A DNA stretch of 64,000 nt, taken from Candidatus Latescibacterota bacterium. Lineage in GTDB: Bacteria; Latescibacterota; UBA2968; UBA8231. Shown here in pieces: positions 26,800 to 43,682 of the stretch. Under the pieces are notes generated by a model that made no database searches, was not told the DNA's origin, and saw only the letters and a program-made list of their open reading frames with translations. The stretch is from contig OZ220089.1 of the NCBI GenBank assembly GCA_964291625.2, positions 3,264,001 to 3,328,000 on the forward strand. Reading direction: 5' to 3'. Made by a program: the position numbers and the translations under genes. Position 1 is the stretch's first letter. Every line of letters begins with the position of its first letter.

Positions 26800-28115
26800 G
26801 TCTCCCGCTCCCAGTCGCTGACCGACTGGTGGTAGTCCCGCCACTCCTCGCGCTTGCACTCCAGGTAGTAGCCGGAGTACTCCCGGCCGAGGGCCTCGCG
26901 GACCACCTCGTCCTGCTCCAGGGCGTCGCAGGCGTCGCGCAGGGTGGCGGGCAGGTAGTCGATGCCGCGCTCGGCCAGCTCGGCCTCGGTCAGCTCGTAG
27001 AGGTTCTCGTTGTTGCGGCGGCCGGGGTCGGTCTCGTTCTCGATGCCGTCGAGGCCGGCGGCCAGGAGCACGGCGCTGGCCAGGTACGGGTTGGCGGCGC
27101 CGTCGACGCAGCGGTTCTCGATGCGGCCGGGCGCCGGGATGCGGATCATCTGGGTGCGGTTGGAGCCGCCGTAGGTGACGTAGACCGGAGCCCAGCTGGC
27201 GCCGGAGCGGGGGGCGCCGCGGGTGAGGCGCTTGTAGCTGTTGACCAGGGGGCCGGAGACCGCCACGAGGGCCTTGGCGTGGGCCAGGACGCCGCCCATG
27301 AAGTGGTAGGCCATCCGCGACAGGCCGCTGGGGTCGCTCTCGTCGAAGAAGAGGTTGGTCTCGTTGTCCGTGTCCCACAGGCTCATGTGGAAGTGGGCGC
27401 CCGAGCCGGTGAGGTCGCCGAAGGGCTTGGGCATGAAGGTGGCGTGGAGGCCGCGCTCCTCGGCCATGGTCTTGACCATCCAGCGGTAGAAGGTGTGGCG
27501 GTCGGCCGTGGTCAGGGCGTCGGAGTACTCCCAGTTGATCTCGAACTGGCAGTTGGCGTCCTCGTGGTCGTTGGCGTACGGACCCCACCCGAGGGCCTGC
27601 AGGTGGCCGATGAGGGTGGTCATGAGGTCGAAGTTGCGGTTGAGGGTGACCAGGTCGTAGCAGGGCTTGTCCAGGGTGTCGAAGGGATCGCTGGTGGTGA
27701 AGCGGCCCTCCTCGTCGCGCTTGAGGAGGATGAACTCGGCCTCGACGCCGACGTTGAAGCGGTAGCCGAGACCGCGGGCCCGCTCGAGCTGGCGGTTGAG
27801 GATGGTGCGCGGGCAGTAGTCGAAGGGCTCGCCCTCGACCTCGAGGTTGCCGGGGACCCAGGCCATGTCGGGCCGCCAGGGCACGATCATCCCCTGGCCG
27901 AAGTCGGGCATGTTGGCCAGCTCGGGGCTGTGGGGGCCCTGGCCCATGTTGCCGGCGGCGAAGCCGGCGAAACCGGCGCCCTCGGCGGCCATGTCCTGAA
28001 GGTTGGTGGCCGGCACCAGCTTGGCCTTGGGCATGCCGCCCATCTCGACGAAGGAGCACAGGAAGTACTCGATCTCTTTGTCCTTCACCCACTTCTCGAC
28101 ATCTCTGAGTTCCAT
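26781..28115 (-). CDS. glnT: Type III glutamate-ammonia ligase / gamma-glutamylmethylamide synthetase (GmaS)
   Basis: PKAKLVP, GAGFAGFA, YANDHEDANCQFEINW, ATFMPKPF, SGASWAP, NRTQMIRIP; context of mgd and mgs genes. Confidence 0.9.
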   Translation of the reverse strand: MELRDVEKWVKDKEIEYFLCSFVEMGGMPKAKLVPATNLQDMAAEGAGFAGFAAGNMGQGPHSPELANMPDFGQGMIVPWRPDMAWVPGNLEVEGEPFDYCPRTILNRQLERARGLGYRFNVGVEAEFILLKRDEEGRFTTSDPFDTLDKPCYDLVTLNRNFDLMTTLIGHLQALGWGPYANDHEDANCQFEINWEYSDALTTADRHTFYRWMVKTMAEERGLHATFMPKPFGDLTGSGAHFHMSLWDTDNETNLFFDESDPSGLSRMAYHFMGGVLAHAKALVAVSGPLVNSYKRLTRGAPRSGASWAPVYVTYGGSNRTQMIRIPAPGRIENRCVDGAANPYLASAVLLAAGLDGIENETDPGRRNNENLYELTEAELAERGIDYLPATLRDACDALEQDEVVREALGREYSGYYLECKREEWRDYHQSVSDWERETYLSVF

Positions 28116-28150
28116 GACCCTCTCCTCGGGGGATGCGTTTGAAGTAATGC

Positions 28151-28834
28151 TCAGGCTTCCAGCTCTCGGAGGGCGGCGGCGCCGATGGGGACGATGCCGA
28201 ACTCGGCGCCCGCCTCCATGAGGATGTCCCAAACGTAGGCGCCCGGGGCGCGCCCGCCGAGGACGCGGTAGGCGGGCCGACCGCCGGCGTCGGCGCGGAC
28301 CACCAGGGCCTTGACGCGGGCGACGCTGGTCTCGCGGCAGCGGCGGTCCGGGAAGGCGTCGTCGTCGAAGTCCAGCCCGCAGAGCTTGCTCAGCAGCCGC
28401 GGGGCCTCCGGGCCGACGATGCGGTACTCGAAGCGGCCGTGGGTCACGTCGGTGACGGTCACCAGTCCGGTGGCTCCACCAGCGGCTTGCTCGATGGTCT
28501 TGAGGATTGCCGCTCCCTCGCCGGGGCCGGCGGCCATGAGCAGGAGGTCGGGCCGGAGGCCGCAGGCGGTCACCCGGCCCCCGCTCACCTCTCCCATTCC
28601 GGGGGCCGCCAGGCCGGTGGCCGCGGCGATCACCGCGCCGGCCTCCTCACCCTGCACGAGCAGCTTCGCCCGGGGCGTCTCGTCGCCGAGGGCCACCCCT
28701 TCCCGCGCCGCCCGCGCCTCGGCGGCGCCGTCGCCGAAGCGCTCGGGGAACTGCCACCCGTCGATCTCGGTCAGGTGCGCGCCCAGGGTCTCCCAGCGGC
28801 CGTGGAGGGGGGTCGCGTACCAGGGCCCGGCCAT
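28151..28834 (-). CDS. soxG: Sarcosine oxidase gamma / N-methylglutamate dehydrogenase MgdD-like subunit
   Basis: GcvT-like fold, VTDVTHG, LLSKLCGLDF; position in the BDAG operon. Confidence 0.78.
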   Translation of the reverse strand: MAGPWYATPLHGRWETLGAHLTEIDGWQFPERFGDGAAEARAAREGVALGDETPRAKLLVQGEEAGAVIAAATGLAAPGMGEVSGGRVTACGLRPDLLLMAAGPGEGAAILKTIEQAAGGATGLVTVTDVTHGRFEYRIVGPEAPRLLSKLCGLDFDDDAFPDRRCRETSVARVKALVVRADAGGRPAYRVLGGRAPGAYVWDILMEAGAEFGIVPIGAAALRELEA

Positions 28835-31761
28835 CAGCTGCGCAGCCTCTCGCCGGCGGGATCGTAGAACGCCCCGTGGTGCACCCGTCCCTCCTCCAGG
28901 CCTCCGCCGGAGTACACGGAGAAGGCGGCTCCCTCCTCCTCGGCGAGGTCGGCCGGCAGCCAGCACAGGCCGATGACGCCGCCGAGGGTTGGCGAGCGCC
29001 GGCAGGAGGTGATCCAGCCGATGATGTCGAAGCCGCCGCCGGAGCGGCGGGTGACGATCTGCAGGCCCTCCTCCACGACGGCGTCGTCGCGGCTCATGCG
29101 GAAGCCCGTGAGGCGCTGCTTCGGTCCGGTCTCCGCCACCCGGGTCAGGGCCCGCTTCCCGAGGAAGTCGGGCTTCTCCAGCTTGACGGCCCATCCGGAG
29201 TCGGCGGAGATGGCGTCGGAGAGGGCGTCCGTGTCCTGGCCGACGATCAGGTGGCCCTTCTCCAGTCGGAGGATGCGCTGGGCCTCGACGCCGAAGGGGC
29301 GGATGCCGTGGTCGGCCCCGGCCTCCATGAGCGCCTCCCACAGGTGCCGGCCGCCGCCGGCCGGGCCGTGGATCTCGTAGGACAGCTCGCCGGTGAAGCC
29401 GATGCGCAGGACCAGGCAGGAGAGGCCGGCGACCCGGGTGCGGCGGGCGCGCATGTAGGGGAACTTCGCCTTCGACAGGTCGCGGGAGGTGAGCTTCTGC
29501 AGCACCTCGCGGGAGGCGGGGCCGGCGAGGTTGACGGCGGCCCGGGCCTCGGTGAGGTCGGTGACGTGGACGCCGTCGCCCCAGCCCGACTGGCGCCACC
29601 ACTCGACCCACTCCAGGGCGCCGGCGGCGCCGGTGGAGGTGGTGCTCACGTACCAGTCGTCGTCGGCCAGGCGGGCGCAGACGCCGTCGTCGAGGACGAC
29701 CCCCTCGTCGTTGCACATCAAGCCGTAGCGCACCCGCCCCCGGCGCAGGTCCCGCCAGGAGTTGACGTAGAGGCGCTCCAGCAGGTCCGGCACCCCCGGC
29801 CCGGTGAGGCGCAGCTTGCCGAGGGGGCTCACGTCGATGAGGCCGACGGCGTTGCGCACCGCCGCCACCTCCTCGGCGGGGTCGCCGTAGCGCTCCGGCC
29901 GCAGCCAGGTGCCGGCGGTCATCATGCGGGCGCCGTGGGCCAGGTGCCAGTCGTGCATCGCCGAGACCTGCACCGGCTCCATCTTCTGGCCGGCGAGAGT
30001 CCCCAGGGAGAGCGGCGTCACGGGAGGCCGTGCCGTCGTCCGGCCCGTCTCCTGCACCGAGCGGCCGGTGCCGGCGGCGCACAGGCGGATCCCGTGGAGG
30101 TTGCACATGCGGCCCTGGCAGGGACCCATGCCGATGGTCGTGTATCGCTTGAGCAGCTCGAGGTGGTCGTACCCCTCGGCCAGGGAGGTGTCGATGTCGG
30201 TGTCGGTCACGTCCTCGCACAGGCAGACGAAGCGCTTGCCGCCGCCGCAGGCGGGAGCGCTGACCAGCGCCGAGGAGCGGGAGGCGGCGTCTTCGGGCGG
30301 GTCCGCGTCGGCCGCTCCGGGGTCCGCCGCCAAGGGGTGGGCGGCATCGGCCTCCGGGGCCTGCCCGGCCTCCGCTGTCCCCGAGCCCCGGGCGTGGGCC
30401 GCCGCGGCGGCGCCGGCCCGGCGGCCGTGCTCCTCCTCGGCCTCCAGCGGTCCCTGCAGGCCGGCGGCCCTCCCCGCCAGGAACACCCCCGCCGGCAGGT
30501 CGACCACCCGCATCTCGGCGCGCTCCTCGTCGTAGCGGCTGCCCGCTCCGGCCATCCAGGCGAGCTCCGCCGAGGGCTGCCGCCCGGTGCTGACGGCGAC
30601 GAGGTCGCAGCGCACCCGGCGCCTCGCGCCGGCGCCGGAGACCGGCACCAGCACCGCCGAGCGCACGCGGCGGCGGCCCCGGGCGGCGCCGATGGTGTAC
30701 CCGGTGAGCACCTCCGCCCCGGAGGCGGCCACCTCCGCGGCCCCGGGCGGCTCCGCCCCGGGCCGCTCGTCGGCCACGGCGGCGACCTCGACCCCGGCGG
30801 CCAGCAGGTCGGCGGCCACCTCCCAGCCGCCGTCGCCGGCGGTGACGACCACCGCCCTCCGGCCCGGGGCCACGCCGTGGAGGCGCAGCAGCCGCTGCAC
30901 CGCCGTGCCGAGCATGACCCCCGGCCGGTCGTTGCCGTCGAAGAGCGGCGGGATCTCGTGGCTGCCGGTGGCCACGACCACGGCGCGGGCGCGGATCTTG
31001 AACAAGCGGTGGCCGCACGCCGCCGACAGCCAGTGGTCCTGGTACCAGCCGGTCACCGAGGTCCCGGTGAGCACCTCCACGCCGGCCCGGGAGAGCCGCT
31101 GCGCGGCGTCGTCGAGATCGCCCCGGGGGGTGCCGCTGTAGCGCAGGTGCCCGCCGAGGCCGGGGTTCTCGTCGAGCAGCAGCACCCGGGCGCCGCTCTC
31201 GCGGGCGGCCAGGGCGGCGCCCTGGCCGGCGGGACCTCCCCCGGCGACGACCACGTCGGCGTGGAGGTACTGCTTGTCGTACTCCCCCTCCGGCGTCTGC
31301 TCGTCCACGGTGCCGAGGCCGGCGGCGGTGCGCAGCACCCGGTCGTAGAGGGGCCACAGCCGCCGCGGCCGGATGAAGGTCTTGTAGTAGAACCCCGCCG
31401 GCAGGAAGCGCGAGACCCGCTCCGTCAGGGCCATGAGGTCGAGCTTGAGCGACGGCCAGGCGTTCTGGGGCCGCACGTCCAGGCCTTCCTCCAGCGGCCG
31501 GGTGCAGGCCCGCACGTTCGGCTCGGTGCCGACCTGCACGAGGCAGTTGGGGCAGTGGCCGGCGCAGCACAGCAGGCCGCGGGGGCGGTGGTACTTGAAG
31601 GAGCGGCTGAAGAGGGAGACCCCGGCGGCGGCCAGGGCCGAGGCGATCGTGTCCCCGGCGCAGCCGCTGTACTCGCGGCCACCGAAGCGGAAGCGCAGGC
31701 TGCGCCCGCGGTCCAGAACCTCTCCCGGCCGCGGCTCGATGCGGTGCGAGGGCCCGCTCAT
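28834..31761 (-). CDS. soxA: Sarcosine oxidase alpha / MgdC-like subunit
   Basis: SRSFKYHRPRG, GGGPAG, CLCEDVT, KRYTTIGMGPCQG, TARPP, GcvT domain (DVSPLGK, RIGFTGELSYE, LRLEKG). Confidence 0.92.
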   Translation of the reverse strand: MSGPSHRIEPRPGEVLDRGRSLRFRFGGREYSGCAGDTIASALAAAGVSLFSRSFKYHRPRGLLCCAGHCPNCLVQVGTEPNVRACTRPLEEGLDVRPQNAWPSLKLDLMALTERVSRFLPAGFYYKTFIRPRRLWPLYDRVLRTAAGLGTVDEQTPEGEYDKQYLHADVVVAGGGPAGQGAALAARESGARVLLLDENPGLGGHLRYSGTPRGDLDDAAQRLSRAGVEVLTGTSVTGWYQDHWLSAACGHRLFKIRARAVVVATGSHEIPPLFDGNDRPGVMLGTAVQRLLRLHGVAPGRRAVVVTAGDGGWEVAADLLAAGVEVAAVADERPGAEPPGAAEVAASGAEVLTGYTIGAARGRRRVRSAVLVPVSGAGARRRVRCDLVAVSTGRQPSAELAWMAGAGSRYDEERAEMRVVDLPAGVFLAGRAAGLQGPLEAEEEHGRRAGAAAAAHARGSGTAEAGQAPEADAAHPLAADPGAADADPPEDAASRSSALVSAPACGGGKRFVCLCEDVTDTDIDTSLAEGYDHLELLKRYTTIGMGPCQGRMCNLHGIRLCAAGTGRSVQETGRTTARPPVTPLSLGTLAGQKMEPVQVSAMHDWHLAHGARMMTAGTWLRPERYGDPAEEVAAVRNAVGLIDVSPLGKLRLTGPGVPDLLERLYVNSWRDLRRGRVRYGLMCNDEGVVLDDGVCARLADDDWYVSTTSTGAAGALEWVEWWRQSGWGDGVHVTDLTEARAAVNLAGPASREVLQKLTSRDLSKAKFPYMRARRTRVAGLSCLVLRIGFTGELSYEIHGPAGGGRHLWEALMEAGADHGIRPFGVEAQRILRLEKGHLIVGQDTDALSDAISADSGWAVKLEKPDFLGKRALTRVAETGPKQRLTGFRMSRDDAVVEEGLQIVTRRSGGGFDIIGWITSCRRSPTLGGVIGLCWLPADLAEEEGAAFSVYSGGGLEEGRVHHGAFYDPAGERLRS

Positions 31762-31843
31762 GACCGGCCCTTCCGGACGCCGCTGCCGCGGCTGGAGGAG
31801 GTCGCCCAACCCACCCGGGTGCCGCCGGGGCGGCCGGAGCGGC

Positions 31844-32128
31844 TCATCCGGCGCCTTCGGCCGGCGCGCCGTCGGGGGACCACCGGAAGGTCCGGGAGAC
31901 GGCGTTCGTGCGGCGGTCGCGCTCGGCCAGGAACCACAGGCCGCAGCCGGCGCGGTGGATCCACCACTCGCGGCGGGGGCCCATGGGGTTGTCGCGCAGG
32001 TAGAGGTAGTCGTGCCACTCCTCGTCGCCCGCCGCCGTGGACGGGGAAGGCCGTGGACTGTACTCGCCGCCGTAGTGGAACTCGGAGACGTTGCGCTCGC
32101 CGCAGTGGGGGCAGGCCAGCAGCAGCAT
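31844..32128 (-). CDS. soxD: Sarcosine oxidase delta / MgdB-like subunit
   Basis: CPHCGER...EF.YGGE, YLYLRDNP.G, EWW.H..GC. Confidence 0.92.
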   Translation of the reverse strand: MLLLACPHCGERNVSEFHYGGEYSPRPSPSTAAGDEEWHDYLYLRDNPMGPRREWWIHRAGCGLWFLAERDRRTNAVSRTFRWSPDGAPAEGAG

Positions 32129-33360
32129 CAGTGGCCCACCGCGGCGGCGCCCTTCTCGCCCACGGGGTCGAACTCGGCGAAGCGGGAGAGGCGGAAGGGA
32201 TGGATGAGGTCGGGGGTGCGCCCCGTGGCGATCAGCTCGGCCAGGGTCTGGCCGCAGATGGGGGAGGCCTTGAAGCCGTAGGTGCCCCAGCCGGCGTCGA
32301 GGTAGAAGCCCTTCACCGGCGTGACCCCCATGAGGGGGCTGTAGTCGGGGGGCATCTCGCACAGCCCCGCCCACTGGCGCAGGATGCGGACCTGCGACAG
32401 GAAGGGGAAGAGCTCCAGCACGTGCCCCGAGAGGCCCTCGAGGAAGTCGAGGGAGCCGGCCGTGGAGTAGGAGGTGAAGGGATCGACGCTGGCGCCCATG
32501 ACCAGCTCGCCGCGGCCGGACTGGCTGATGTAGACGTGGAGGGAGCCGGAGACGACGACCACGTCGAGGAACGGCTTGAGGGGTTCGGTGACGCAGGCCT
32601 GGAGGGGGAAGGTGTCCAGGGGCAGGCGCAGGCCGGCCATGGCGGCCAGGTCGGAGGCCCAGCCGGCCGTGGCCGAGAGCACGGTCCCGGCCGCCACCGG
32701 CCCCCGGGTGGTCTGCACGCCGGTGACGCCGCCGGCGGCCACGTCGATGCCGGTGACCTCGGTGTACTGATGGATGTCGACGCCGCGCTCGTCGGCGCCG
32801 CGGGCGTACCCCCAGACGACGGCGTCGTGGCGGATGATCCCCCCCGGCGGATGGTAGAGGGCGGCGTGGATGGGGAAGCGGGGGCGGTCCGACAGGTCGA
32901 GCTGCGGGCAGATGCGGGCCAGCTCGTCGGGGAAGACGAGGCGGGAGTCGACGCCCTCCAGGCGGTTGACCTCGGCGCGGCGGCGCATGGTGCGCACCGA
33001 GCCGTCGTCGTGGGCCAGGGTGAGGTGGCCGCGGCGGCTGAACATGACGTTGAAATCGAGGTCTTCGGACAGGTCTTCGTAGAGATCGAGGCTGGCGTCG
33101 TAGAAGCGCACGCCCTCGGGGGTGAGGTAGTTGGAGCGCAGGATGGCGGTGTTTCGTCCCGAGCCCCCGGAGCCGATGTAGCTCTTCTCGAGGACGGCCA
33201 CGTCGGTGACGCCGTGGTCCCGGGCCAGGTAGTAGGCGCAGGCCAGTCCGTGGGCGCCGCCGCCGATGATGACGACGTCGTAGCGGTCCTTCAGGGGTCG
33301 GTCGTGCCACATGCGCCGGGGCCTGGCGCCCAGGCCGTGGCGCAGCAGCTTGAAGGGCAT
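32128..33360 (-). CDS. soxB: Sarcosine oxidase beta / MgdA-like FAD subunit
   Basis: IGGGAHGLA.AYYLA, GGSGRNTAILRSNY, RHDAVVWG, GWGTYGFKA, EKGAAAVGH. Confidence 0.93.
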   Translation of the reverse strand: MPFKLLRHGLGARPRRMWHDRPLKDRYDVVIIGGGAHGLACAYYLARDHGVTDVAVLEKSYIGSGGSGRNTAILRSNYLTPEGVRFYDASLDLYEDLSEDLDFNVMFSRRGHLTLAHDDGSVRTMRRRAEVNRLEGVDSRLVFPDELARICPQLDLSDRPRFPIHAALYHPPGGIIRHDAVVWGYARGADERGVDIHQYTEVTGIDVAAGGVTGVQTTRGPVAAGTVLSATAGWASDLAAMAGLRLPLDTFPLQACVTEPLKPFLDVVVVSGSLHVYISQSGRGELVMGASVDPFTSYSTAGSLDFLEGLSGHVLELFPFLSQVRILRQWAGLCEMPPDYSPLMGVTPVKGFYLDAGWGTYGFKASPICGQTLAELIATGRTPDLIHPFRLSRFAEFDPVGEKGAAAVGH

Positions 33361-33634
33361 ACGGTGGCGCTCCGGCGCGGAAGTCCACGGGAGAAGGGCG
33401 ATAAGATGGTGGGCCCACGGGGTGCCCGCCACCGGGGGCCGGTGGCCGGCCGCCGGACATCCTGCGCCGCGTCGGGACGCGTGGTCCGGGTTGCCGGCCC
33501 CACTTCCCTTGCGCAACATCAGCGACTTGGGCCTGCGCGCGCCGAAGTGCGATCGGCGAGAGAAATCACGGGAGACCGCGAAGCGCAGGCCCCAGGAGGC
33601 ACGTCGACGCCGCGCGCCTCCGGGAGACGCCGAG

Positions 33635-35650
33635 ATGCCCTCACCCCGCTTCGACCGCAGCCTGCTGCCGCCGGCGGACCTCGAGTTCGTCGTCGTCTCC
33701 GACACCCACTACATGATCGACGTGGGCGACGCGCCCCTGGAGTTCGAGTCGCGCCGCCGCCAGGGCGAGCGGGCCGGGGCCGCCTGGCGCGCCATCGCCG
33801 GCCTCGACCCGGCCTTCGTCGTGCACCTGGGCGACATGGTGCAGGAGTTCCCGGGCCGTCCCGACTACGACCGCGCCGCGCGCGAGGCCCTCGGCCAGAT
33901 CCACGGCGCCGGCCTGTGGGAGCGCTGCCGTTTCGCGGCCGGCAACCACGACATCGGCGACCGGCCCGACCCGACCATGCCCACGGGCGAGGCCACGGAG
34001 GAGAGTCTCGACACCTGGGAGCGCCGGCACGGCCCGTCCTGGCACGCATGGGACGCGGCCGGGATCCGCTTCCTGGTGCTCAACTCGCAGCTGTTCAACA
34101 CGGGCCTGGCCGCGCACGCCCGCCAGCGGGCCTGGCTCGAGGCGCAGCTGGCGGAGGCCGATGGCAGGCCGTGCGTCCTGTTCCTGCACATGCCGCCGTA
34201 CCTCGCGGACCCCGCCGAGCCCTGGCTCGGCCACTACGACAACCTCGGCGAGCCGGACCGCGGCTGGCTCCTCGACCTGGTGCGCCGGCACCGGGTGCTG
34301 GCCATGTTCGCCGGCCACGTGCACTTCCAGTTCTTCGACCACGTGGCCGGGGAGAGCGGCGTCTGCCGCTACTACGTCACCCCCTCCCCGTCCTTCACCC
34401 GACCCGGGTTCTCGCACCTCTTCACCTCGGCCCCGCCCCCGGAGCAGGGCCGGGACGACGAGGAGAAGCTGGGGTTCTTCTTGTGCCGGATGGTCGGCGG
34501 CCGCCTCGACGTTCACCGCCTGCGCATGGCGGCCCTGCTGGCCGCGGGCGACGGTGCCTGCCTGATCACTCCGCTGCCGGCGGCGTGCGAGGGGCCGTCC
34601 CGAAGCAGACCGGGTTTCGACCCGGGCGTCACCCTGCGCCATGCGCTGGCCCCCCGGGCCGAGGTGCCCCTGGCCTGGCCGTCGGTGATTCGCCAGCCGG
34701 TGCGCAACGACTACCCCCTGCTCGCCTGCCTGGAGATGGGCGTCTCGTGGGTGCGCGCGCCCCTGGCCGACCTGGCGGACCCGCTCCAGGCCCGGCGCCT
34801 GGAGGTGCTGCGCGCCGAGGGGGTCCGCGTGCAGGCCGTCGCCCTCGGCGAGGAGGAGGCCCTCGGCCGCGCCGGCGATCTTGCCGGGGCGGACGCCCTG
34901 GAGGTGCAGTTGCCCGGGCGCCTGCTGCCGGACATCCGGTCCCTGGCGGCGCTGGGAGAGGCCGCCCTTCCCCTGGTGCTGTCCCCCGTGCTGCCGGGCC
35001 AGCCGGTGCCGGGCAAGCAGCACCACCGCACGAGGATCGGGTACTTGCCCGAAGAGCTGGACGGCCTCGCCGAGGCCCTCGAGGAGGCGCACCTGACGGC
35101 CGCCGCCGCCTGCCGGCTGGACCCGTCTGACCCTTGGGAGACGGCGCGGCTCCTGGAGCAGGCCCGTGGCCGCAGACCGTTGCAGCTGCAGCTGCTGGCC
35201 GAGATGCCCGGCGTCGACGACGGGACCAACGCTCACTCGGTGGCGCGCGCCATGCTGGCCGCGGCGAGTCTCGACGTGCCCCTCTTCCTGGAGCCGCTGG
35301 TCGACCTGGACCGCACCATGGACGTGGCCCGGGGCCTGCTGGACACGCGCTGCAACCCGCGGCCCCCCTTCGAGGTCGCCCGTTGCCTTGGCGCCCTGCT
35401 GCGCCGGGGAGCCGGCCGAGCGGTCTCCGTCTCCCGGCGCGGGTCCTGCGAGATCGCCTCCCTCGGAGACCATGCCTGCCTGGTGATCGTCGAGGCCGGG
35501 TCCGTCCGTCCGGGTGAGGTGCTGGAGCAGCCGCCCCCCGGGCCCTTGTGGTCGTGCCGGCTCGCCGTGGGCGCGGTCTCCGCCTACCAGCCGCGGACCG
35601 AGCTGAGGCCGGAGGACGGCCCCCTGCTGGTGGTCCGCCGCGCCGACTGA
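33635..35650 (+). CDS. Calcineurin-like metallophosphoesterase with an uncharacterised C-terminal half
   Basis: SDTH, HLGD, AGNHD, FLHMP, AGHVH. Confidence 0.82.
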   Translation: MPSPRFDRSLLPPADLEFVVVSDTHYMIDVGDAPLEFESRRRQGERAGAAWRAIAGLDPAFVVHLGDMVQEFPGRPDYDRAAREALGQIHGAGLWERCRFAAGNHDIGDRPDPTMPTGEATEESLDTWERRHGPSWHAWDAAGIRFLVLNSQLFNTGLAAHARQRAWLEAQLAEADGRPCVLFLHMPPYLADPAEPWLGHYDNLGEPDRGWLLDLVRRHRVLAMFAGHVHFQFFDHVAGESGVCRYYVTPSPSFTRPGFSHLFTSAPPPEQGRDDEEKLGFFLCRMVGGRLDVHRLRMAALLAAGDGACLITPLPAACEGPSRSRPGFDPGVTLRHALAPRAEVPLAWPSVIRQPVRNDYPLLACLEMGVSWVRAPLADLADPLQARRLEVLRAEGVRVQAVALGEEEALGRAGDLAGADALEVQLPGRLLPDIRSLAALGEAALPLVLSPVLPGQPVPGKQHHRTRIGYLPEELDGLAEALEEAHLTAAAACRLDPSDPWETARLLEQARGRRPLQLQLLAEMPGVDDGTNAHSVARAMLAAASLDVPLFLEPLVDLDRTMDVARGLLDTRCNPRPPFEVARCLGALLRRGAGRAVSVSRRGSCEIASLGDHACLVIVEAGSVRPGEVLEQPPPGPLWSCRLAVGAVSAYQPRTELRPEDGPLLVVRRAD

Positions 35651-36209: not shown

Positions 36210-36238
36210 TTGCATTACATGACCGGGGCAAGTATACT
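36210..36238 (+). promoter_or_regulatory. Sigma70-type promoter of the regulator-mgs operon (likely leaderless mRNA)
   Basis: TTGCAT-17 nt-TATACT ending 7 nt before ATG 36246, which has no clear SD. Confidence 0.6.
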
Positions 36239-36245
36239 CCCGGGG

Positions 36246-36875
36246 ATGGCCGAGTCGAACCACAGGAACGCCGTCGCCGACCCGGCGACCACGGGGGCCC
36301 CGGAGAGCCGCCTGGAGCGTTCCATCGGCCGCCAGATCCGCACCTTCCGGCAGCAGCTGGACATGACCGCCGCCGACCTGTCGCGCGAGGCGGGCCTGTC
36401 GGCGGGGATGCTCTCCAAGATCGAGAACGGCCTGACCTCGCCCTCCCTGGCGACCCTGAGCGCCCTGGCGGGGGCCCTCAACGTCCCGGTGACCGCCCTC
36501 TTCCGCAAGTACGAGGAGGCCCGCGACGTCTCCTTCGTGCCCGCCGGCGCCGGTCTCGACATCGAGCGCCGGGGCACCCGCGCCGGCCACCAGTACCAGC
36601 TCCTCGGGCACACGGTGAGCCGGCGCATGTTCGTCGAGCCCTACCTCATCCACCTGACCGGCGAGTCGGACGTCTTCCCGGTCTTCCAGCACGGCGGCGT
36701 CGAGTTCATCTACATCCTCGAGGGGCGGATCACCTACCGCCACGGGGACCGCACCTGGGCCATGGGTCCGGGCGACTCCCTGTTCTTCGACGCCGAGGCC
36801 CCCCACGGGCCCGAGGAGCTCACCGAGCTGCCCATCCGCTTCCTGTCCATCCTGATCGAGCCGAGGGAGAGCTGA
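36246..36875 (+). CDS. XRE-family HTH plus cupin transcriptional regulator
   Basis: LSAGMLSKIENG.TSPSL HTH; FQH.GVEFIYILEG cupin; GDSLFFDA..PHGP. Confidence 0.92.
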   Translation: MAESNHRNAVADPATTGAPESRLERSIGRQIRTFRQQLDMTAADLSREAGLSAGMLSKIENGLTSPSLATLSALAGALNVPVTALFRKYEEARDVSFVPAGAGLDIERRGTRAGHQYQLLGHTVSRRMFVEPYLIHLTGESDVFPVFQHGGVEFIYILEGRITYRHGDRTWAMGPGDSLFFDAEAPHGPEELTELPIRFLSILIEPRES

Positions 36876-36876
36876 C

Positions 36877-37782
36877 ATGTGCGGCATCGCCGGAATCCTG
36901 TTCAAGCGCCCGCCGGAGCACCTGAGCGCCGGCCGGGCCCTGGTGGAGATGCTCGACGGCTGCCAGCACCGCGGCCCCGACTCCACCGGCTTCGCCCTCT
37001 ACGGCCGGGACGAGCCCGGCCGCCTGCGGCTGCGCTTCATCGTCGGCGAGGACGGCTGCGCCGAGGCGGCCTGCGCCCGCATCGCGGAGGTGCTGCACCG
37101 GGAGGGCGCCGCCGTGGTGAGCGAGGAGCGGGTCGGCGGCGACTACCGGGTCACCGTGGAGTTCGACGGCGACCTGCAGAGCTTCGCCTACGCCGTGGAG
37201 CACGCCGCCAAGGTCGTCTCCATCGGCTCGAGCCTGGAGATCGTCAAGGACGTGGGCGGCGCCCGCGACGTGGACGGCCGCTACGGCGTGCACGGCTTCG
37301 AGGGCAGCCACGGCCTCGGCCACGTGCGCCTGGCCACCGAGAGCGACGTCAAGCCCGAGGCCTCCCACCCCTTCTGGGCCACGGGCTTCGCCGACGTGGC
37401 GATCGTCCACAACGGCCAGATCACCAACTACTGGAAGATGCGCCGCCGCCTGGAGCAGCGCGGCTTCGAGTTCGCCACCGACAACGACTCGGAGCTGATC
37501 GCCGTCTACCTGGCGGACAAGCTCTCCCAGGGGGTGCCGCTCCAGGACGCCCTGCGCACCTCCATCGACGACCTGGACGGGACCTTCTCCTTCCTCGTGT
37601 CGACGAAGGACGAGATCGGCTACGCCAAGGACCGCATCGCCGCCAAGCCGATGATCATGTACGAGAACGAGGAGCTGGTGGCGGTCGCCTCGGAGGAGGT
37701 CTCCCTCAACCGCCTCTTCCCCGGCCAGGCCCTCGACACCCGCGAGCCCCCGCCGGGGACCTACGCCACGTGGTCCAGGTAG
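36877..37782 (+). CDS. mgsA: Class II glutamine amidotransferase, N-methylglutamate synthase subunit A (GlxB-like)
   Basis: N-terminal MCGIAG, HRGPDSTG, GHVRLATES, SHPF, VHNGQITNY, DNDSE. Confidence 0.88.
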   Translation: MCGIAGILFKRPPEHLSAGRALVEMLDGCQHRGPDSTGFALYGRDEPGRLRLRFIVGEDGCAEAACARIAEVLHREGAAVVSEERVGGDYRVTVEFDGDLQSFAYAVEHAAKVVSIGSSLEIVKDVGGARDVDGRYGVHGFEGSHGLGHVRLATESDVKPEASHPFWATGFADVAIVHNGQITNYWKMRRRLEQRGFEFATDNDSELIAVYLADKLSQGVPLQDALRTSIDDLDGTFSFLVSTKDEIGYAKDRIAAKPMIMYENEELVAVASEEVSLNRLFPGQALDTREPPPGTYATWSR

Positions 37783-39695
37783 ATCTCGCCCGGGTCCCGG
37801 TCCGCCAGGCCAACGAGCGCATCCGCGCCCACGGCGAGGCCGGCGAGGACGTGGAGGTCCTCAACCCCGACGCCCGACACCACATCGGCGTCGGCCTCAC
37901 CTCGCCGATCCGCGTGCGGGTGCGGGGGTCGGCGGGATACTTCTGCGCCGGCCTCTCCGACCAGGCCCGCTTCGAGGTCGACAACAACGTCGGCTGGGGG
38001 CTGGCCGACAACATGTACACCGGGTCGGTGGTAGTCCGCGGCAACGCCGGCGCCATCGCCGGGGTCGCCGTCCGCGGCGCCGAGGTCGTGGTCCACGGCA
38101 ACCTCGGCTCCCGCGCCGGACAGGTGATGAAGGCCGGCACCCTGTGCTGCGCCGGCAACGCCAACTTCATGGCCGGCTACATGATGTACGGGGGGCGCAT
38201 CATCCTCCTCGGCGACTCGGGGGAGCGCGTCGGCGAGGACATGACGGGGGGCGAGATCTTCGTGGGGGGCCAGGTCCGCGACCTCGGCAGCGACGCCGAG
38301 CTGACCGACCTGGACGACGGCGACGACGATGGCGTGCGCGAGTTCCTCGACCGCTGGGAGATCCCCTTCCGCGGGTCGCTGCGGAAGATCGTCAACGCCG
38401 GCACGAAGCTGCGCTACGCCACCGAGGAGCCCCAGGTGCGCAGCATTCCCTTCTTCACCTACTCGCGGGACTCGGAGTACTGGAACCCCAAGGTGCAGGA
38501 GGACGTGCACGTCAAGTCGCGCATCGGCCGCTACCGGATCCGCGGCTACGGGGCGGCGCGGCCCCTGCCGCACCTGGCGGACCTCGGCTTCCGCGCCGAC
38601 CTGGGCGCCGCCGGCCGGGCGGAGGACGTGGTCTCCCGGGTCCAGATGCGCACCGAGATCGGCGGCCTCAACGGCGCCGAGCCCCTGAAGCTGAGCATGC
38701 CGGTCATGATCGCGCCCATGAGCTACGGCGCCATCAGCCGCTCGACGAAGCAGGCCGTGGCCATGGCCTCGGCCATGTCCGACATCGCCGAGAACACCGG
38801 CGAGGGCGGCATGAGCGACGCCCAGAGGGACGCGGCCAAGCAGTTGATCTTCCAGTGCCTGGGGGGCCGCCTGGGCTGGAACATCCACGACATGAAGCGC
38901 GCCGACGGCCTGGAGATCTACATCTCCCAGGGGGCCAAGCCCGGCCTCGGCGGCCAGCTGATGGCCAAGAAGGTGACGCCGGAGCTGGCGGCGATCCGCG
39001 GCATCCCGGCGGGCATCGACCTGCGCTCGCCGTCGCGCCACCCGGACATCCTCGGCGCCGACGACCTGGTGATCAAGATCGAGGAGTTCCGCGAGGCCAC
39101 GGGCTACCGCAAGCCGGTGAGCGTCAAGCTCGGCGCCGGGCGGGTGCGCGACGACATCAAGATCGCCGTCAAGGACGGCTTCGACTTCGTCGAGCTCGAC
39201 GGCATGCAGGGGGCCACCGGCGCCGGCAGCGGCGAGGTCATCGACCACGTGGGCATCCCCACCCTGCCGGCGATCATCGAGGCCCTGGAGGCGCTCGAGG
39301 AGATCGGCCGCCGCCAGGACATCGAGGTCGTCCTCATGGGCGGCCTGCGGGACGGCATCGACGCGGTGAAGGCCCTCTGCCTCGGGGCGGACGCCGCCGC
39401 CTTCGGCACCTCGGTGCTCATCGCCGGCGGCTGCATCGCCTGCATGCAGTGCCACGTGGGCCAGTGCGTCACCGGCATCGCCACCCAGGACCCGGAGCAC
39501 GAGAAGCGCTACGAGCCGGCCGTGGAGGCGCGCAACATCCACCGCTTCCTGGAGACCGTGCGCTGGCAGATCGCGGCCCTGACCCACGCCATGGGCTACT
39601 CCAGCACCCGCGAGCTGAACCGCGGCGACCTCGTGGCCCTGACGCCGGAGGCCGCCGAGATCACCGGCCTGCCGCTGGCGCCCGGACCGGGCTGA
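37770..39695 (+). CDS. Fused MgsB (GXGXG beta-helix) - MgsC (FMN glutamate-synthase barrel)
   Basis: N-terminal GSAGYFCAG, GNAG, MKAG and GGEIFVGG repeats; then APMSYGA, NTGEGGM, SQGAKPGLGG, LRSPSRHPD, DGMQGATGA, CIACMQCHVGQC. Confidence 0.88.
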   Translation: MVQVDLARVPVRQANERIRAHGEAGEDVEVLNPDARHHIGVGLTSPIRVRVRGSAGYFCAGLSDQARFEVDNNVGWGLADNMYTGSVVVRGNAGAIAGVAVRGAEVVVHGNLGSRAGQVMKAGTLCCAGNANFMAGYMMYGGRIILLGDSGERVGEDMTGGEIFVGGQVRDLGSDAELTDLDDGDDDGVREFLDRWEIPFRGSLRKIVNAGTKLRYATEEPQVRSIPFFTYSRDSEYWNPKVQEDVHVKSRIGRYRIRGYGAARPLPHLADLGFRADLGAAGRAEDVVSRVQMRTEIGGLNGAEPLKLSMPVMIAPMSYGAISRSTKQAVAMASAMSDIAENTGEGGMSDAQRDAAKQLIFQCLGGRLGWNIHDMKRADGLEIYISQGAKPGLGGQLMAKKVTPELAAIRGIPAGIDLRSPSRHPDILGADDLVIKIEEFREATGYRKPVSVKLGAGRVRDDIKIAVKDGFDFVELDGMQGATGAGSGEVIDHVGIPTLPAIIEALEALEEIGRRQDIEVVLMGGLRDGIDAVKALCLGADAAAFGTSVLIAGGCIACMQCHVGQCVTGIATQDPEHEKRYEPAVEARNIHRFLETVRWQIAALTHAMGYSSTRELNRGDLVALTPEAAEITGLPLAPGPG

Positions 39696-39699
39696 CCCC

Positions 39700-42237
39700 A
39701 TGGCCGTCTACGATCTGCTGCGCATCGAGATGCCGGACGCGCCGCCCGGCTTCGCCGACGACACCGGCGACCTCCACTACGTGCCGGCCCCCTGCCAGGT
39801 CGCCTGTCCCGTGGGCACCGACGCGGCCTCCTACATCGGCCTGATCTGGGAGGGGAAGTACGAGGAGGCCTTCGAGGCGATCACGGCGACCAACCCCTTC
39901 AGCTCGATCTGCGGCCGCGTCTGCGACGCCCCCTGCGAGCCCGCCTGCCGGCGCACCGACTCGGACGGCCCGATACAGATCCGCAACCTCAAGCGCTTCG
40001 TCATGGACCGCATCGGCCACCGCTGCGACCCGCCGCCGGTGCCGGTGACGAAGAAGGAAACGGTCGGCATCGTCGGCGCCGGCCCGGCGGGGCTGACCGC
40101 GGCCCACGACCTCGGCGAGGCCGGGTACGCCGTGCACGTCTACGAGATGACGGACCGCCTCGGCGGCATGATGGTCTGGGGGATCCCGGCCTTCCGCCTG
40201 CCGCCGGGGATCATCGACGAGGACATCACGCGCCTGACGCGGCGTTGCCCCGGCCTCGAGGTGCACCTGAACACCGGCCTCGGCCGCGACATCAGCCTGG
40301 CGGAGCTGAAGGAGCGCCACGACGCCGTGCTGCTGGCCATCGGCGCCTGGTGGGGCAAGCCGATGGGGATCCCCGGCGAGGAGCACGAGGGCGTGATCGA
40401 CGGCGTCGGCTGGCTGCGCGAGATCAACGCCGGGGCGCGGCCCCGGCTCCCCAAGAAAGTGGTCGTCGTCGGCGGCGGCGACGTGGCCATGGACGCCTGC
40501 CGCGTCGCCCGGCGGCTGCCCGGCTGCGAGCACGTGCAGGTCCTCTACCGCCGCGGGCCGGAGGAGATCCCGGCGCGCCCCATCGAGCTGGAGGGGGCGA
40601 TCGCCGAGGGCATCGAGTTCGTCTACCACACCCAGCCGGTGGCCGTCGAGCCCCGGGGCGACGGACTCGCCCTCAGGTGCGTGCGCACCGAGCTCGGCGA
40701 GCCCGAGGCCGACGGCCGCCGCCGCCCCGTCAACGTGGCGGGCAGCGAGCACGACTTCGAGTGCGGCCTGGTGATCGCGTCGGTGGGGCAGAAGGGGGTC
40801 TGCGACGAGCTCGACGAGCTGGGCATGATGCGCCCCGACCGCATCGACGCCGACTTCGAGAGCATGCGCACCACCGACCCCAAGGTCTTCGCCGCCGGCG
40901 ACGGCGCCTTCGGCGGCTCGACGATCGTCATCGCCATGCACCACGGGCAGAAGGCCGCCTACTACGTGCGCAACTTCCTCGAGGGCCACGACGAGCCCCT
41001 GCCCTACCGCACCCCCTACCGCACGCGGCGCGTGGAGGTGGCCCAGGACGCCCTGTGGGAGCGGCTGGCCCTGCAGCACCCGGAGTTCCACGGCCTCGGC
41101 CGCGAGCCGGTGACCTTCCCCGAGATCGAGAGCACCTACGACCCGGAGTCGGCCCACAAGGAGGCGGCGCGCTGCTACCGCTGCGACGCCGAGACCGGCA
41201 CCCCCGACTACAGCGTGCAGCACCGCGAGGACCTGTTCTCCATGGCGCGGATGGAGAAGGGCGAGTCCGACAAGCAGCAGGCGATGCTGCGGCGCCGCCT
41301 GGCGCCCCGGGACAACCCCTTCCCCGAGCAGCGGCCGCCGCAGCTGGAGGACCTGGTCTTCCTGCCGGCGAACCTGTCGCGCCTGGTGATCGACCCCTAC
41401 CGCGAGGCCTGCCGCGTCGGCTGCGATCTCGGCGGCTCCCTGGAGCTGGCCCACCCGCTGATGGTCACCGGCTTCGACGGGGCGCCCCGCCAGGTGAAGG
41501 AGGCGGTCGCCACCGGGCTGGCCGAGGCGGAGGCCGTCTACGTGGGGGCGCAGCCCCTGTCCCGGGAGACGGCGGTCACCTGGCTCCAGGTGCTCGGCGA
41601 GGACGGCGCGGAGCCGCGGGCGGAGGCGGCGGGGCTGCTGCGGTTGGTCTCCGGCACCGGGGAGGCGCGACTGCCCGAGCGCTTGCGCGAGGAACAGGTC
41701 ACGGGTCTGGTGGTCTCGCGGCGGGAGCACCTGGAGGCGGCGGTTTCCGCCGCCCTCGAGCAGGACCAGTCCCTGCTGCTGCTCAACGGCCAGGGTCCCG
41801 CGTGGCCCGCCAACGGCTGGGCGGAGCTGGCCGGGGCGCCCGACCTGCGGCTGCTGCGGGATGCCGTGCGCCTGCTGCGGGAACACCGCCGCGAGGGCGA
41901 CGTGGACCTCGTCCACTTCGGCGGGGTCCGCTCCGGCACGGATGCGGCCAAGCTCATCGGCCTGGGCGCCGCGGCCATGGTGATGGGCGTCTCGGCGGGA
42001 CTGGCGGCCGGCGGTCACATTCGGGGCCCGGAGCTGGCCTTCGACGCCGACCTCGGCGCCGAGGAGCGCGCCTCCGCGGTGGCCAACCTGGTCCGCGCCA
42101 ACTGCAGCGAGGCGTCGATGATGGCGCGCTGCTGCGGCAAGACGGTGCTCCACAACATCGAGCCCGAGGACCTGCGGGCCCTGACCCTGGCCACCAGCGA
42201 CAGCACGGGGATTCCGCTGGCGGGGCAGCGGGGGTGA
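39700..42237 (+). CDS. GltD-like Fe-S/FAD NAD(P)H oxidoreductase fused to a degenerate glutamate-synthase FMN domain
   Basis: CQVACP, NPFSSICGRVC..PCE..C, GAGPAG, GIPAFRLP, GGGDVAMD, YRR, FAAGD, EAARCYRC; then LVFLPANLSRLVIDPYRE and GGVRSGTDAAKLIGLGA. Confidence 0.85.
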   Translation: MAVYDLLRIEMPDAPPGFADDTGDLHYVPAPCQVACPVGTDAASYIGLIWEGKYEEAFEAITATNPFSSICGRVCDAPCEPACRRTDSDGPIQIRNLKRFVMDRIGHRCDPPPVPVTKKETVGIVGAGPAGLTAAHDLGEAGYAVHVYEMTDRLGGMMVWGIPAFRLPPGIIDEDITRLTRRCPGLEVHLNTGLGRDISLAELKERHDAVLLAIGAWWGKPMGIPGEEHEGVIDGVGWLREINAGARPRLPKKVVVVGGGDVAMDACRVARRLPGCEHVQVLYRRGPEEIPARPIELEGAIAEGIEFVYHTQPVAVEPRGDGLALRCVRTELGEPEADGRRRPVNVAGSEHDFECGLVIASVGQKGVCDELDELGMMRPDRIDADFESMRTTDPKVFAAGDGAFGGSTIVIAMHHGQKAAYYVRNFLEGHDEPLPYRTPYRTRRVEVAQDALWERLALQHPEFHGLGREPVTFPEIESTYDPESAHKEAARCYRCDAETGTPDYSVQHREDLFSMARMEKGESDKQQAMLRRRLAPRDNPFPEQRPPQLEDLVFLPANLSRLVIDPYREACRVGCDLGGSLELAHPLMVTGFDGAPRQVKEAVATGLAEAEAVYVGAQPLSRETAVTWLQVLGEDGAEPRAEAAGLLRLVSGTGEARLPERLREEQVTGLVVSRREHLEAAVSAALEQDQSLLLLNGQGPAWPANGWAELAGAPDLRLLRDAVRLLREHRREGDVDLVHFGGVRSGTDAAKLIGLGAAAMVMGVSAGLAAGGHIRGPELAFDADLGAEERASAVANLVRANCSEASMMARCCGKTVLHNIEPEDLRALTLATSDSTGIPLAGQRG

Positions 42238-43679: not shown

Positions 43680-43682
43680 GCG

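Follow-up and report, generated by a model that had tools for sequence, protein, structure and literature searches.

We analyzed a 64,000-nucleotide stretch of DNA from a Candidatus Latescibacterota bacterium (contig OZ220089.1, positions 3,264,001 to 3,328,000; hereafter, the window) and focused on one of its genes, gltDx. This uninterrupted open reading frame (ORF) on the forward strand (39700–42237) has an 845-residue product (P0001) that joins a reductase module of the glutamate synthase small-subunit (GltD) type to a 350-residue C-terminal part. Directly upstream lie mgsA, for an amidotransferase-like subunit, and mgsBC, for a fused subunit whose second half is a catalytic flavin mononucleotide (FMN) barrel, MgsC (Table 1). 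GltDx is probably the electron-input subunit of a glutamate synthase (GOGAT)-like enzyme made of MgsA, MgsBC, and GltDx and coupled to reduced nicotinamide adenine dinucleotide (phosphate), NAD(P)H, in which the C-terminal part, a degenerate or "dead" barrel, would serve as a non-catalytic tether on MgsC. The argument starts from what was observed for the dead barrel, namely its homology, fold, motif loss, conservation, synteny, and co-occurrence.

Where does the C-terminal part come from? An earlier note on this DNA, made by a model from the letters and their ORFs, had described it as a second, catalytically degenerate glutamate synthase barrel, and the alignments bear this out. BLASTP of residues 481–845 against the adjacent MgsC barrel gave an E value of 4e-8, with 29% identity over 146 amino acids, collinear to the C-terminus. 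A profile of ten GltDx C-terminal parts was aligned by hhalign with a profile of eleven MgsC barrels at a probability of 99.4 and E 1.7e-21 over 290 columns; the match runs from residue 51 to 342 of the C-terminal part and from position 40 to 412 of the barrel, which is nearly the whole barrel. Judged by these alignments, the homology of the C-terminal part to the glutamate synthase barrel is beyond chance. The Pfam scan proposed in the note gave a more mixed picture: Fer4_20 and Pyr_redox_2 were found, but Glu_synthase (PF01645) scored 16.1 bits in the window protein alone, under the cut-off of 20.4, and past residue 416 only a sub-threshold FMN_dh match (732–773) appeared. Among the 63 non-redundant members of the family set, Glu_synthase matched 60 at E ≤ 1 (best E 1.9e-8), and FMN_dh matched all 63 at the same threshold.

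The predicted fold agrees with this homology. AlphaFold2, run on the alignment of the 63 sequences, modeled the C-terminal part as a triose-phosphate isomerase (TIM) barrel of eight strands, with a mean local confidence (pLDDT) of 87.7 and a predicted template modeling score (pTM) of 0.86; no helices occur between strands 2 and 5. Foldseek and VIA-align grouped the model with the FMN-linked TIM barrels. The VIA alignments include 1fcb_A (Z 21.2, root-mean-square deviation 3.2, 250 aligned residues) and chain residues 820–1189 of the Azospirillum NADPH-dependent glutamate synthase (NADPH-GltS, or GltS), 6s6s_A (Z 18.5, root-mean-square deviation 3.5, 270 aligned residues). The best GltS structural alignment fell on the FMN domain and not on the central domain. 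At the profile level, the dead barrel met the FMN domain of classical GltB, the large subunit, at only E 0.042 over 40 columns. No GltS chain was present among the 60 matches listed in a PDB profile search, which cover the phosphate-loop region of FMN oxidases, isopentenyl diphosphate isomerase, and inosine monophosphate dehydrogenase. As a separate observation, the ESM Atlas neighborhood of window positions 41185–42234 includes clusters of archaeal (Nitrososphaerota) "hypothetical proteins" of ~390 amino acids, in which Glu_synthase is given for 58% (score 0.94, 9 hits); these may be further shortened barrels.

In GltS, the strand-1 (β1) MS, TGEGG, and QGAKPG elements hold the flavin ring and 2-oxoglutarate. 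In our alignments, all three were deleted or replaced in the dead barrel, together with the RSPSRHPD segment and the whole Fe–S cysteine loop. The earlier note was, thus, correct in stating that the MSxG, TGEGG, QGAKPG, and cysteine-cluster motifs are present in MgsC and absent from the C-terminus: the strings MSYG, TGEGG, QGAKPG, and CIACMQCHVGQC have zero exact occurrences in the C-terminal part and are encoded in the adjacent mgsBC at 38718–38729, 38796–38810, 38928–38945, and 39432–39467, respectively. The MgsC cysteines C552, C555, C558, and C563 have no counterparts in the dead barrel, in which the Fe–S loop after strand 8 is deleted. C571 is invariant and C811 nearly so, with no other cysteine of the C-terminal part conserved to this degree, and the Pfam scan found no Fer4-family match beyond residue 104 of P0001. 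From the lost motifs, we infer that the C-terminal barrel is catalytically degenerate and without FMN.

Four elements were retained. The two sequences that the note had picked out, LVFLPANLSRLVIDPYRE and GGVRSGTDAAKLIGLGA, were located at residues 552–569 and 741–757. The former is an arm ahead of strand 1 with the consensus FLPANL(S/T)RLVIDPYRE.C; in both monomer models, confidence is lowest along this arm, with pLDDT below 50 at residues 557–569. The latter is the phosphate loop, GG.RSG.D.AK...G, in which G246, G247, R249, G251, D253, A255, and G261 (C-terminal-part numbering) are invariant in the 63 sequences. W133 and Q135 of the C-terminal part and a C-terminal motif, E..MMARC.GKT..HN.EPEDLR, are likewise invariant or nearly so. 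The dead barrel is under purifying selection, constrained and showing no decay: compared with three close relatives, its dN/dS ratio was 0.17–0.28, next to 0.13–0.18 for the GltD part and 0.08–0.14 for MgsBC.

Could the dead barrel hold the reductase on MgsC, as the earlier note had proposed in the form of a barrel–barrel pseudo-dimer? We predicted the complex of full MgsBC (638 amino acids, 35-row alignment) with the C-terminal part (350 amino acids, 63-row alignment) and obtained scores of 0.88, 0.89, and 0.90, compared with 0.00 for the best of three controls. The predicted complex has ~300 contacts; the runs shared at least 90% of them, and the partner pLDDT was 87 or higher. The score mark used for such predictions, attained by 58 of 80 solved complexes and by 2 of 110 mismatched pairs, applies only roughly here, since custom alignments were used. 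On the dead-barrel side, the predicted interface comprises the linker helices, the whole arm (57–73), the phosphate loop (247, 249–252), the last long helix (297–316), and the C-terminal strand. MgsC contributes the pre-barrel segment 228–280, ISQGAKPGLG 382–391, RSPSR 416–420, DHVGIP 489–494, GGLRDG 522–527, and the cysteine loop 544–556. The docking part of the proposal, therefore, found support in silico, while its geometry changed: the prediction places the dead barrel opposite the catalytic face of MgsC, in a face-to-face and not a side-by-side arrangement.

The arm deserves attention in this model. Its contacts are among those with the lowest error in the predicted complex (0.5–0.7 Å between MgsBC 490–492 and residues 58–59 of the C-terminal part), and, because it is of low confidence in the monomers, this fits an arm that would become ordered only on its partner. 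Conservation of the dead barrel follows the predicted interface as well. The mean column conservation was 0.767 at the 89 interface positions and 0.584 at the other 261 (Mann–Whitney p 1.4e-8), and half of the invariant residues (21/42) fall within the interface, which takes up 89 of the 350 positions (Fisher p 2.2e-4).

We also examined the GltD half of the protein. NCBIfam models of the GltD type align at residues ~29–499, in keeping with the note's placement of the end of this part at about 41190, and all of them score under their cut-offs (PRK12771, the best, 400 against 516 bits; TIGR01318, 255 against 483; TIGR01317, 200 against 448), so P0001 fails the NCBIfam cut-offs for an equivalog of the GOGAT small subunit. 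In 59 full-length sequences, both Gly-rich dinucleotide motifs are invariant (G126, G128, and G131; G258–G260 and D261), as are eight cysteines, six of them N-terminal and two, C492 and C495, in an RCxRC motif. As far as these residues tell, the GltD module of GltDx is intact. By analogy with GltD-like modules, the eight cysteines would ligate the two [4Fe-4S] clusters typical of such modules (PMC8097209), with C492 and C495 as the putative seventh and eighth ligands; the assignment of ligands to clusters follows the same analogy. For comparison, one of the Fe–S ligands of GltS is reported to be a glutamate in parts of a published account (PMC8097209). In the complex model, the first GltDx residues placed on MgsC come directly after C495.

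We then compared MgsBC with the ordinary mgsABC clusters carried by four named plasmids (Paracoccus aminophilus pAMI6, Methylobacterium sp. DM1, Rhizobium ruizarguesonis, and Acinetobacter sp. PK01). In all four, the amidotransferase, the GXGXG protein, and the FMN barrel are encoded by separate genes, with glnT coming next, and none has a GltD-like gene. Their MgsC loop is longer by 16 residues and contains zero cysteines in 4/4 cases. Because four cysteines are invariant in the MgsC that accompanies GltDx and none occurs in the canonical loop, the former looks built to accept electrons and the latter does not, and the cysteine loop could serve as a simple sequence marker separating the two kinds of mgs operon. 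The GltDx-type MgsBC is 35–40% identical to its canonical counterparts.

These comparisons also bear on the descent of the dead barrel, which the note had called a pseudo-enzyme paralogue. It is homologous to the adjacent MgsC barrel but is no recent copy of its neighbor: three dead barrels matched canonical MgsC by BLASTP at E 1e-18 to 1e-20 and their own partners' type at only E 1e-5 to 1e-10, and they gave no match to the GltB of the genome. Because canonical MgsC is the closer relative, the dead barrel is an old offshoot of the MgsC/GlxD kind. The arm motif and ARxCGK..LHNLEPEDL are common to canonical MgsC and the dead barrel and are lost in the GltDx-associated MgsC. A further set of genes was seen in Defluviicoccus (L008, 5848–8723; L009, 10120–12995), where a second mgsA and fused mgsBC follow the gltDx operon in tandem, ahead of sox-type genes. 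This second set is 39–40% identical to the first and is without gltDx. Its barrel combines the canonical-type long loop with four cysteines and looks, by its sequence, intermediate between the two kinds.

How general is the arrangement? We found 821 relatives of the gltDx product at E ≤ 1e-3 among 8000 scored candidates, full-length ones having ~831–863 amino acids, and, among 1.84 billion representatives, a profile search found 1296 matches at E ≤ 1e-3, 119 of them at E ≤ 1e-30. In the sources, they are annotated as "FAD-dependent oxidoreductase" or "glutamate synthase". Relatives are also encoded in at least 434 metagenome stretches; the best 80 of these were analyzed together with 13 genome loci (Gemmatimonadaceae, "Latescibacterota" metagenome-assembled genomes, Alphaproteobacteria, Defluviicoccus, three Rhodoblastus strains, and one Rhodoblastus metagenome-assembled genome), giving 93 loci. 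The barrel was contiguous with the GltD part in all 91 loci that reach upstream; the other two begin at a contig end. MgsBC was encoded directly upstream of gltDx in 73/73 loci with at least 700 nucleotides of flank, and mgsA abutted mgsBC in 53 of 55 (all but L007 and L017). A gene for a type III glutamine synthetase (GS-III) followed within 1.2 kb downstream of gltDx in 29 of 60 loci, and sarcosine-oxidase-type (sox-type) genes were found near the operon in 15 of the 93. The operon of mgsA, fused mgsBC, and the GltD–barrel gene, often followed by GS-III, is conserved and distinct from the ordinary mgsABC cluster. None of the 93 loci has a G+C content below 45%, and no SAR11 glxBCD cluster was assigned to the GltDx type. 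The plasmid collection, searched with the dead barrel, yielded no GltD–barrel gene and only two weak matches, to the C-terminal motif of ordinary FMN-binding glutamate synthase family proteins. In one metagenome locus (L093, 1184–3395), the start of an mgsBC lies ~1 kb downstream of gltDx instead of upstream, which suggests a permuted gene order.

Furthermore, the dead barrel and the fused MgsBC occur together. Of the 121 genomes sampled from the phylum, the dead barrel was found in 16 and a fused-type MgsBC (at least 68% identity over both halves) in 14, and the barrel is present in 14/14 of the latter; this is a pattern and not a statistic, as related genomes are non-independent. The two extra barrel-bearing genomes are 84–85% complete, with the gene close to a contig end. 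Domain fusions vary around the same theme. In P0129 (1486 amino acids, one contig), the GXGXG domain, catalytic barrel, GltD, and dead barrel form one chain, and in P0132 (1031 amino acids, three contigs), MgsBC is fused straight to the dead barrel with no GltD. Six proteins of 361–437 amino acids (P0165, P0171, P0175, P0186, P0176, and P0177), one of them on a 3.9-Mb contig, are stand-alone dead barrels in which the arm, phosphate loop, and C-terminal motif are all retained. Because P0132 and the stand-alone forms lack GltD, the constant partner of the dead barrel seems to be the synthase barrel. A 1536-residue frame in a complete genome (G079, locus L120) was also considered as a gene fusion and was rejected as a high-GC artefact, as mgsBC and gltDx lie in different frames.

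How would such an enzyme work? The N-terminal 495 residues, the GltD module, would take a hydride from NAD(P)H onto flavin adenine dinucleotide (FAD). By analogy with related enzymes, the electrons would then run through the two [4Fe-4S] clusters (ligands C32, C36, C71, C75, C79, C83, C492, and C495) to the MgsC Fe–S cluster (C552, C555, C558, and C563) and on to the MgsC FMN. MgsA would hydrolyze a γ-glutamyl amide made by GS-III and free an amine, which would form an imine with 2-oxoglutarate on MgsC and be reduced there; this chemistry is proposed because of the analogy with GltS (PMC8097209) and the gene context. The amide would most likely be γ-glutamylmethylamide from the neighboring GS-III, and, because of the sox-type genes in the window, γ-glutamylmethylamide and N-methylglutamate are the likeliest substrate and product. 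The C-terminal 350 residues would be a non-catalytic descendant of an MgsC/GlxD-type FMN barrel, stripped of the substrate, flavin-ring, and Fe–S motifs and of three outer helices. It would insert its arm (FLPANLSRLVIDPYRE), phosphate loop, and last long helix into the catalytic side of MgsC. The tether would, in this way, set the RCxRC-bound cluster next to the MgsC cysteine loop, and the dead barrel would also cover the active site.

Several observations weigh against this proposal. The full-length monomer model (pTM 0.56) does not fix how the two halves of GltDx are placed with respect to one another. The MgsBC side of the predicted interface is no more conserved than the rest (0.846 compared with 0.809, p 0.14), and its share of the invariant MgsBC residues is 41/225 (Fisher p 0.44); MgsBC is 81% conserved throughout. 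The conservation test and the complex prediction share alignments and are, hence, not fully independent. The predicted interface represents the model's own confidence, and the model may draw on the solved GltS structures, where a single chain holds the FMN barrel and a truncated barrel packed against it. An invariant phosphate loop would be equally expected if the domain still bound FMN or another phosphate ligand. For the substrate, GS-III lies downstream in only 29/60 loci, and the sox-type genes are present in only 15/93. Finally, P0132 and the stand-alone forms of ~360–440 residues do without GltD; therefore, tethering of the reductase cannot be the sole role of the domain.

This last point leads to another explanation, which is possible if somewhat unlikely: the dead barrel would be above all an obligatory structural half of the synthase and not a tether for the reductase, capping the catalytic face of MgsC, completing the active site or the amine tunnel from MgsA, and perhaps gating electrons, and the fusion to GltD would be secondary. 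In classical GltS, this part is played by the truncated central domain of the same chain. The GltD-less P0132 on its three contigs would fit this, as would the arm, phosphate loop, and C-terminal motif retained by the stand-alone barrels, a predicted interface that covers the active-site loops of MgsC, and the loss, from the GltDx-associated MgsC, of the arm and ARxCGK..LHNLEPEDL motifs that canonical MgsC and the dead barrel keep. In GltS, moreover, the central domain is a truncated α/β barrel, possibly a duplicate of the FMN barrel, as parts of one account describe (PMC8097209). Yet the barrel is joined to GltD in 91/91 of the nearest 93 loci that reach upstream, the best structural alignment with GltS is to its FMN domain, and sequence comparison gave no relation to the central domain (hhalign E 0.12; PF04898 in 0/63 members at E ≤ 1).

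Alternatively, the C-terminal barrel could still bind FMN or another phosphorylated cofactor, which would make GltDx a self-contained enzyme passing electrons from NAD(P)H through FAD and Fe–S to FMN, in the manner of dihydropyrimidine dehydrogenase (DPD). We regard this as quite unlikely, as the β1 MS, TGEGG, and QGAKPG elements are deleted or replaced, the helices are missing on one side of the barrel, and there is no extra DPD-type Fe–S domain (one invariant cysteine, C571, one near-invariant, C811, and no Fer4 match). What speaks for it is the GGxRSGxD..K...GA loop, invariant in 63 sequences, along with the FMN_dh match in 63/63 members at E ≤ 1, the PDB profile matches to FMN oxidases through the phosphate loop, and a GltD-like module preceding a TIM barrel, a domain order that recalls DPD (1gt8_A, Z 14.6). 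However, the phosphate loop lies in the predicted protein–protein interface, which would be enough to explain its conservation. The same loop could also belong to a regulatory domain that senses a ligand, such as a phosphorylated or dicarboxylate metabolite, and tunes the electron input, and the invariant charged residues in the last 40 positions (E309, R315, K319, N324, E326, E328, D329, and R331), only some of which are in the predicted interface, could be read in this way. We find this highly improbable: the predicted interface accounts for half of the invariant residues, and a structural partner is the better match for the strict co-occurrence with the fused MgsBC.

The proposed electron-input role can also be joined to the structural one, although we offer the combination only tentatively and consider it rather unlikely as a whole. 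The dead barrel would then be the trans-encoded counterpart of the GltS central domain, and the operon an NAD(P)H-dependent "N-methyl-GOGAT". As a truncated duplicate of the synthase barrel, it would complete the MgsC active site and amine tunnel and would sit between the Fe–S wire and FMN; its descent from the FMN barrel would still be readable in sequence, unlike that of the central domain, and it would be a living intermediate for the long-suspected duplication origin of that domain. The uneven loss of motifs would fit such a history: with the arm motif gone from the catalytic barrel and the active site gone from the dead one, a former face-to-face MgsC homodimer may have turned into an obligate heterodimer of a catalytic and a non-catalytic barrel. 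The overall reaction would be γ-glutamylmethylamide + 2-oxoglutarate + NAD(P)H → N-methylglutamate + glutamate. If true, the N-methylglutamate pathway would have in "N-methyl-GOGAT" a reductive, ammonia-free variant, and this variant would be widespread among bacteria of soils and the sea.

Table 1. Positions in the window of gltDx, its parts, and the neighboring genes.
Feature	Position	Strand	Basis or remark
gltDx, whole 845-aa ORF: GltD-type reductase fused to degenerate Glu_synthase-type barrel	39700..42237	+	
Fer4_20 domain, residues 30–104; six invariant Cys (C32, C36, C71, C75, C79, C83)	39787..40011	+	Pfam E 4.7e-23
Pyr_redox_2 FAD/NAD(P)H module, residues 122–416	40063..40947	+	Pfam E 2e-28
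RCYRCD motif, residues 491–496, after the flavin domain; C492 and C495 invariant	41170..41187	+	
Helical linker, residues 496–545, predicted to wrap onto MgsC	41185..41334	+	Helices in models; many interface residues among C-terminal-part positions 4–46
Degenerate (β/α)8-type barrel	41335..42234	+	
Arm LVFLPANLSRLVIDPYRE, residues 552–569, invariant	41353..41406	+	L60–R73 (C-terminal-part numbering) invariant in 63 sequences
Phosphate loop GGVRSGTDAAKLIGLGA, residues 741–757, retained	41920..41970	+	
mgsBC, fused GXGXG β-helix and catalytic Glu_synthase FMN barrel, predicted partner	37779..39695	+	Pfam GXGXG E 1.3e-12, Glu_synthase E 2e-93
MgsC Fe–S cysteine loop CIACMQCHVGQC: C552, C555, C558, C563	39432..39467	+	Invariant in 35 sequences
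mgsA, class-II (Ntn) glutamine-amidotransferase-like subunit, N-terminus MCGIAG	36877..37782	+	Pfam GATase_6/7
XRE-type helix-turn-helix and cupin regulator	36210..36875	+	Pfam HTH_3, Cupin_2
Type III glutamine-synthetase-like ligase (GmaS/GlnT class)	26781..28232	-	NCBIfam TIGR03105, 597 bits, cut-off 469.6
Heterotetrameric sarcosine-oxidase-family genes (beta, delta, alpha, gamma), class of N-methylglutamate dehydrogenase	28151..33705	-	NCBIfam soxA/soxB below cut-offs; Pfam SoxD, GCV_T

The G+C content is ~72% across the window, and that of the third codon positions of gltDx is 0.98. A classical GltB is present elsewhere in the same genome, within a 1580-residue open frame, and the rest of this genome contains no second Mgs-type barrel. 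The XRE/cupin regulator gene was found again near the operon at many loci. Directly 3′ of gltDx, window positions 42396–44318 encode an AAA_21 ATPase (42396–43679) and an RloB-like protein (43683–44318). This stretch has a G+C content of 60%, compared with ~72% elsewhere in the window, and occupies the site at which many gltDx relatives have their GS-III gene; it has the look of a two-gene island, of the ATPase and RloB kind, that was inserted here. Between the soxB-like gene and the regulator, a 779-residue open frame (33311–35650) contains a calcineurin-like metallophosphoesterase (Pfam, residues 126–338) followed by a long C-terminal part without any Pfam match, and it is 80–89% conserved in the three closest relatives among those whose loci include this flank.

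In the open-access literature, covered mostly at the abstract level, we found no published description of a GltD fused to a degenerate barrel. If the proposed role is true, GltDx would be a clear case of a multi-cofactor redox enzyme that took over a pseudoenzyme domain for docking and capping, and it would offer a sequence-traceable model for the origin of the glutamate synthase central domain. The gltDx family is common and, because it is also present in cultured Rhodoblastus strains, such as Rhodoblastus acidophilus DSM 137 (locus L013), directly testable.

The closest known system is NADPH-GltS (GltB α and GltD β; 6S6S/6S6X), which has the same Ntn amidotransferase, FMN/Fe–S barrel, GXGXG, and two-[4Fe-4S] GltD modules; the GltDx-associated MgsC barrel aligns with the GltB FMN domain at an hhalign E value of 2e-41. 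In both systems, a truncated barrel accompanies the catalytic one; in GltB, this truncated barrel is the central domain, according to the parts of the account cited above (PMC8097209). They differ in that the modules are here spread over three genes, with the β-helix ahead of the barrel; neither MgsA nor MgsBC contains a central domain (PF04898); and the truncated barrel is on the reductase and not on the synthase chain. The dead barrel resembles the GltS central domain in being a truncated α/β barrel that accompanies an FMN barrel and in being predicted to sit on the same kinds of MgsC elements (cysteine loop, FMN phosphate loop, and QGAKPG loop), whereas it belongs to a different polypeptide. 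We also considered homology between the two and found no support for it in sequence, leaving only an analogy, if a close one: hhalign against 15 GltB central domains of the phylum gave E 0.12, and PF04898 was not among the 22 Pfam families matched by the 63 dead-barrel members at E ≤ 1. Separately, the Pfam central-domain profile gave weak matches over its cut-off (E ~1e-6) in genomes of the phylum, in open frames of mostly ~470–620 residues. In several of these frames, the matched stretch also aligns with the MgsC FMN barrel, and the profile likewise matches the FMN barrel of P0246 (residues 521–612), which hints that the GltS central domain and the FMN barrel are related.

DPD (PreT/PreA) shares with GltDx a GltD-like module followed, in one chain, by a TIM barrel of the FMN-oxidoreductase kind, as can be seen from parts of the same account (PMC8097209). 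The DPD barrel has an active FMN site resembling that of dihydroorotate dehydrogenase and is followed by an 8Fe ferredoxin-like domain, whereas the GltDx barrel is of Glu_synthase descent, has lost the catalytic motifs, and is followed by no extra Fe–S domain.

The MgsABC/GlxBCD systems have the same gene families in the same order (amidotransferase, GXGXG, FMN barrel, and GS-III) and the same neighbors, namely sox-type dehydrogenase genes and an XRE-family regulator; it is canonical MgsC to which the dead barrel is closest in sequence and with which it has the arm and the C-terminal motifs in common. The canonical MgsABC reaction is not known to need an external reductant. The canonical systems consist of three separate genes, with no reductase and a cysteine-free MgsC loop (4/4 examined), whereas, in the GltDx operon, B and C are fused, the Fe–S cysteines are invariant, and the GltD–barrel gene stands between mgsC and GS-III. 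Operons that annotation lumps together as "mgs/glx" are split here into two kinds, one without reductase and Fe–S cysteines and the other with a dedicated NAD(P)H reductase and an Fe–S synthase. The gmaS gene of the N-methylglutamate pathway is used as a marker of methylamine use, as parts of a published report indicate (PMC7948447), and the two kinds of mgs operon would differ in their stoichiometry for the assimilation of amine nitrogen and carbon.

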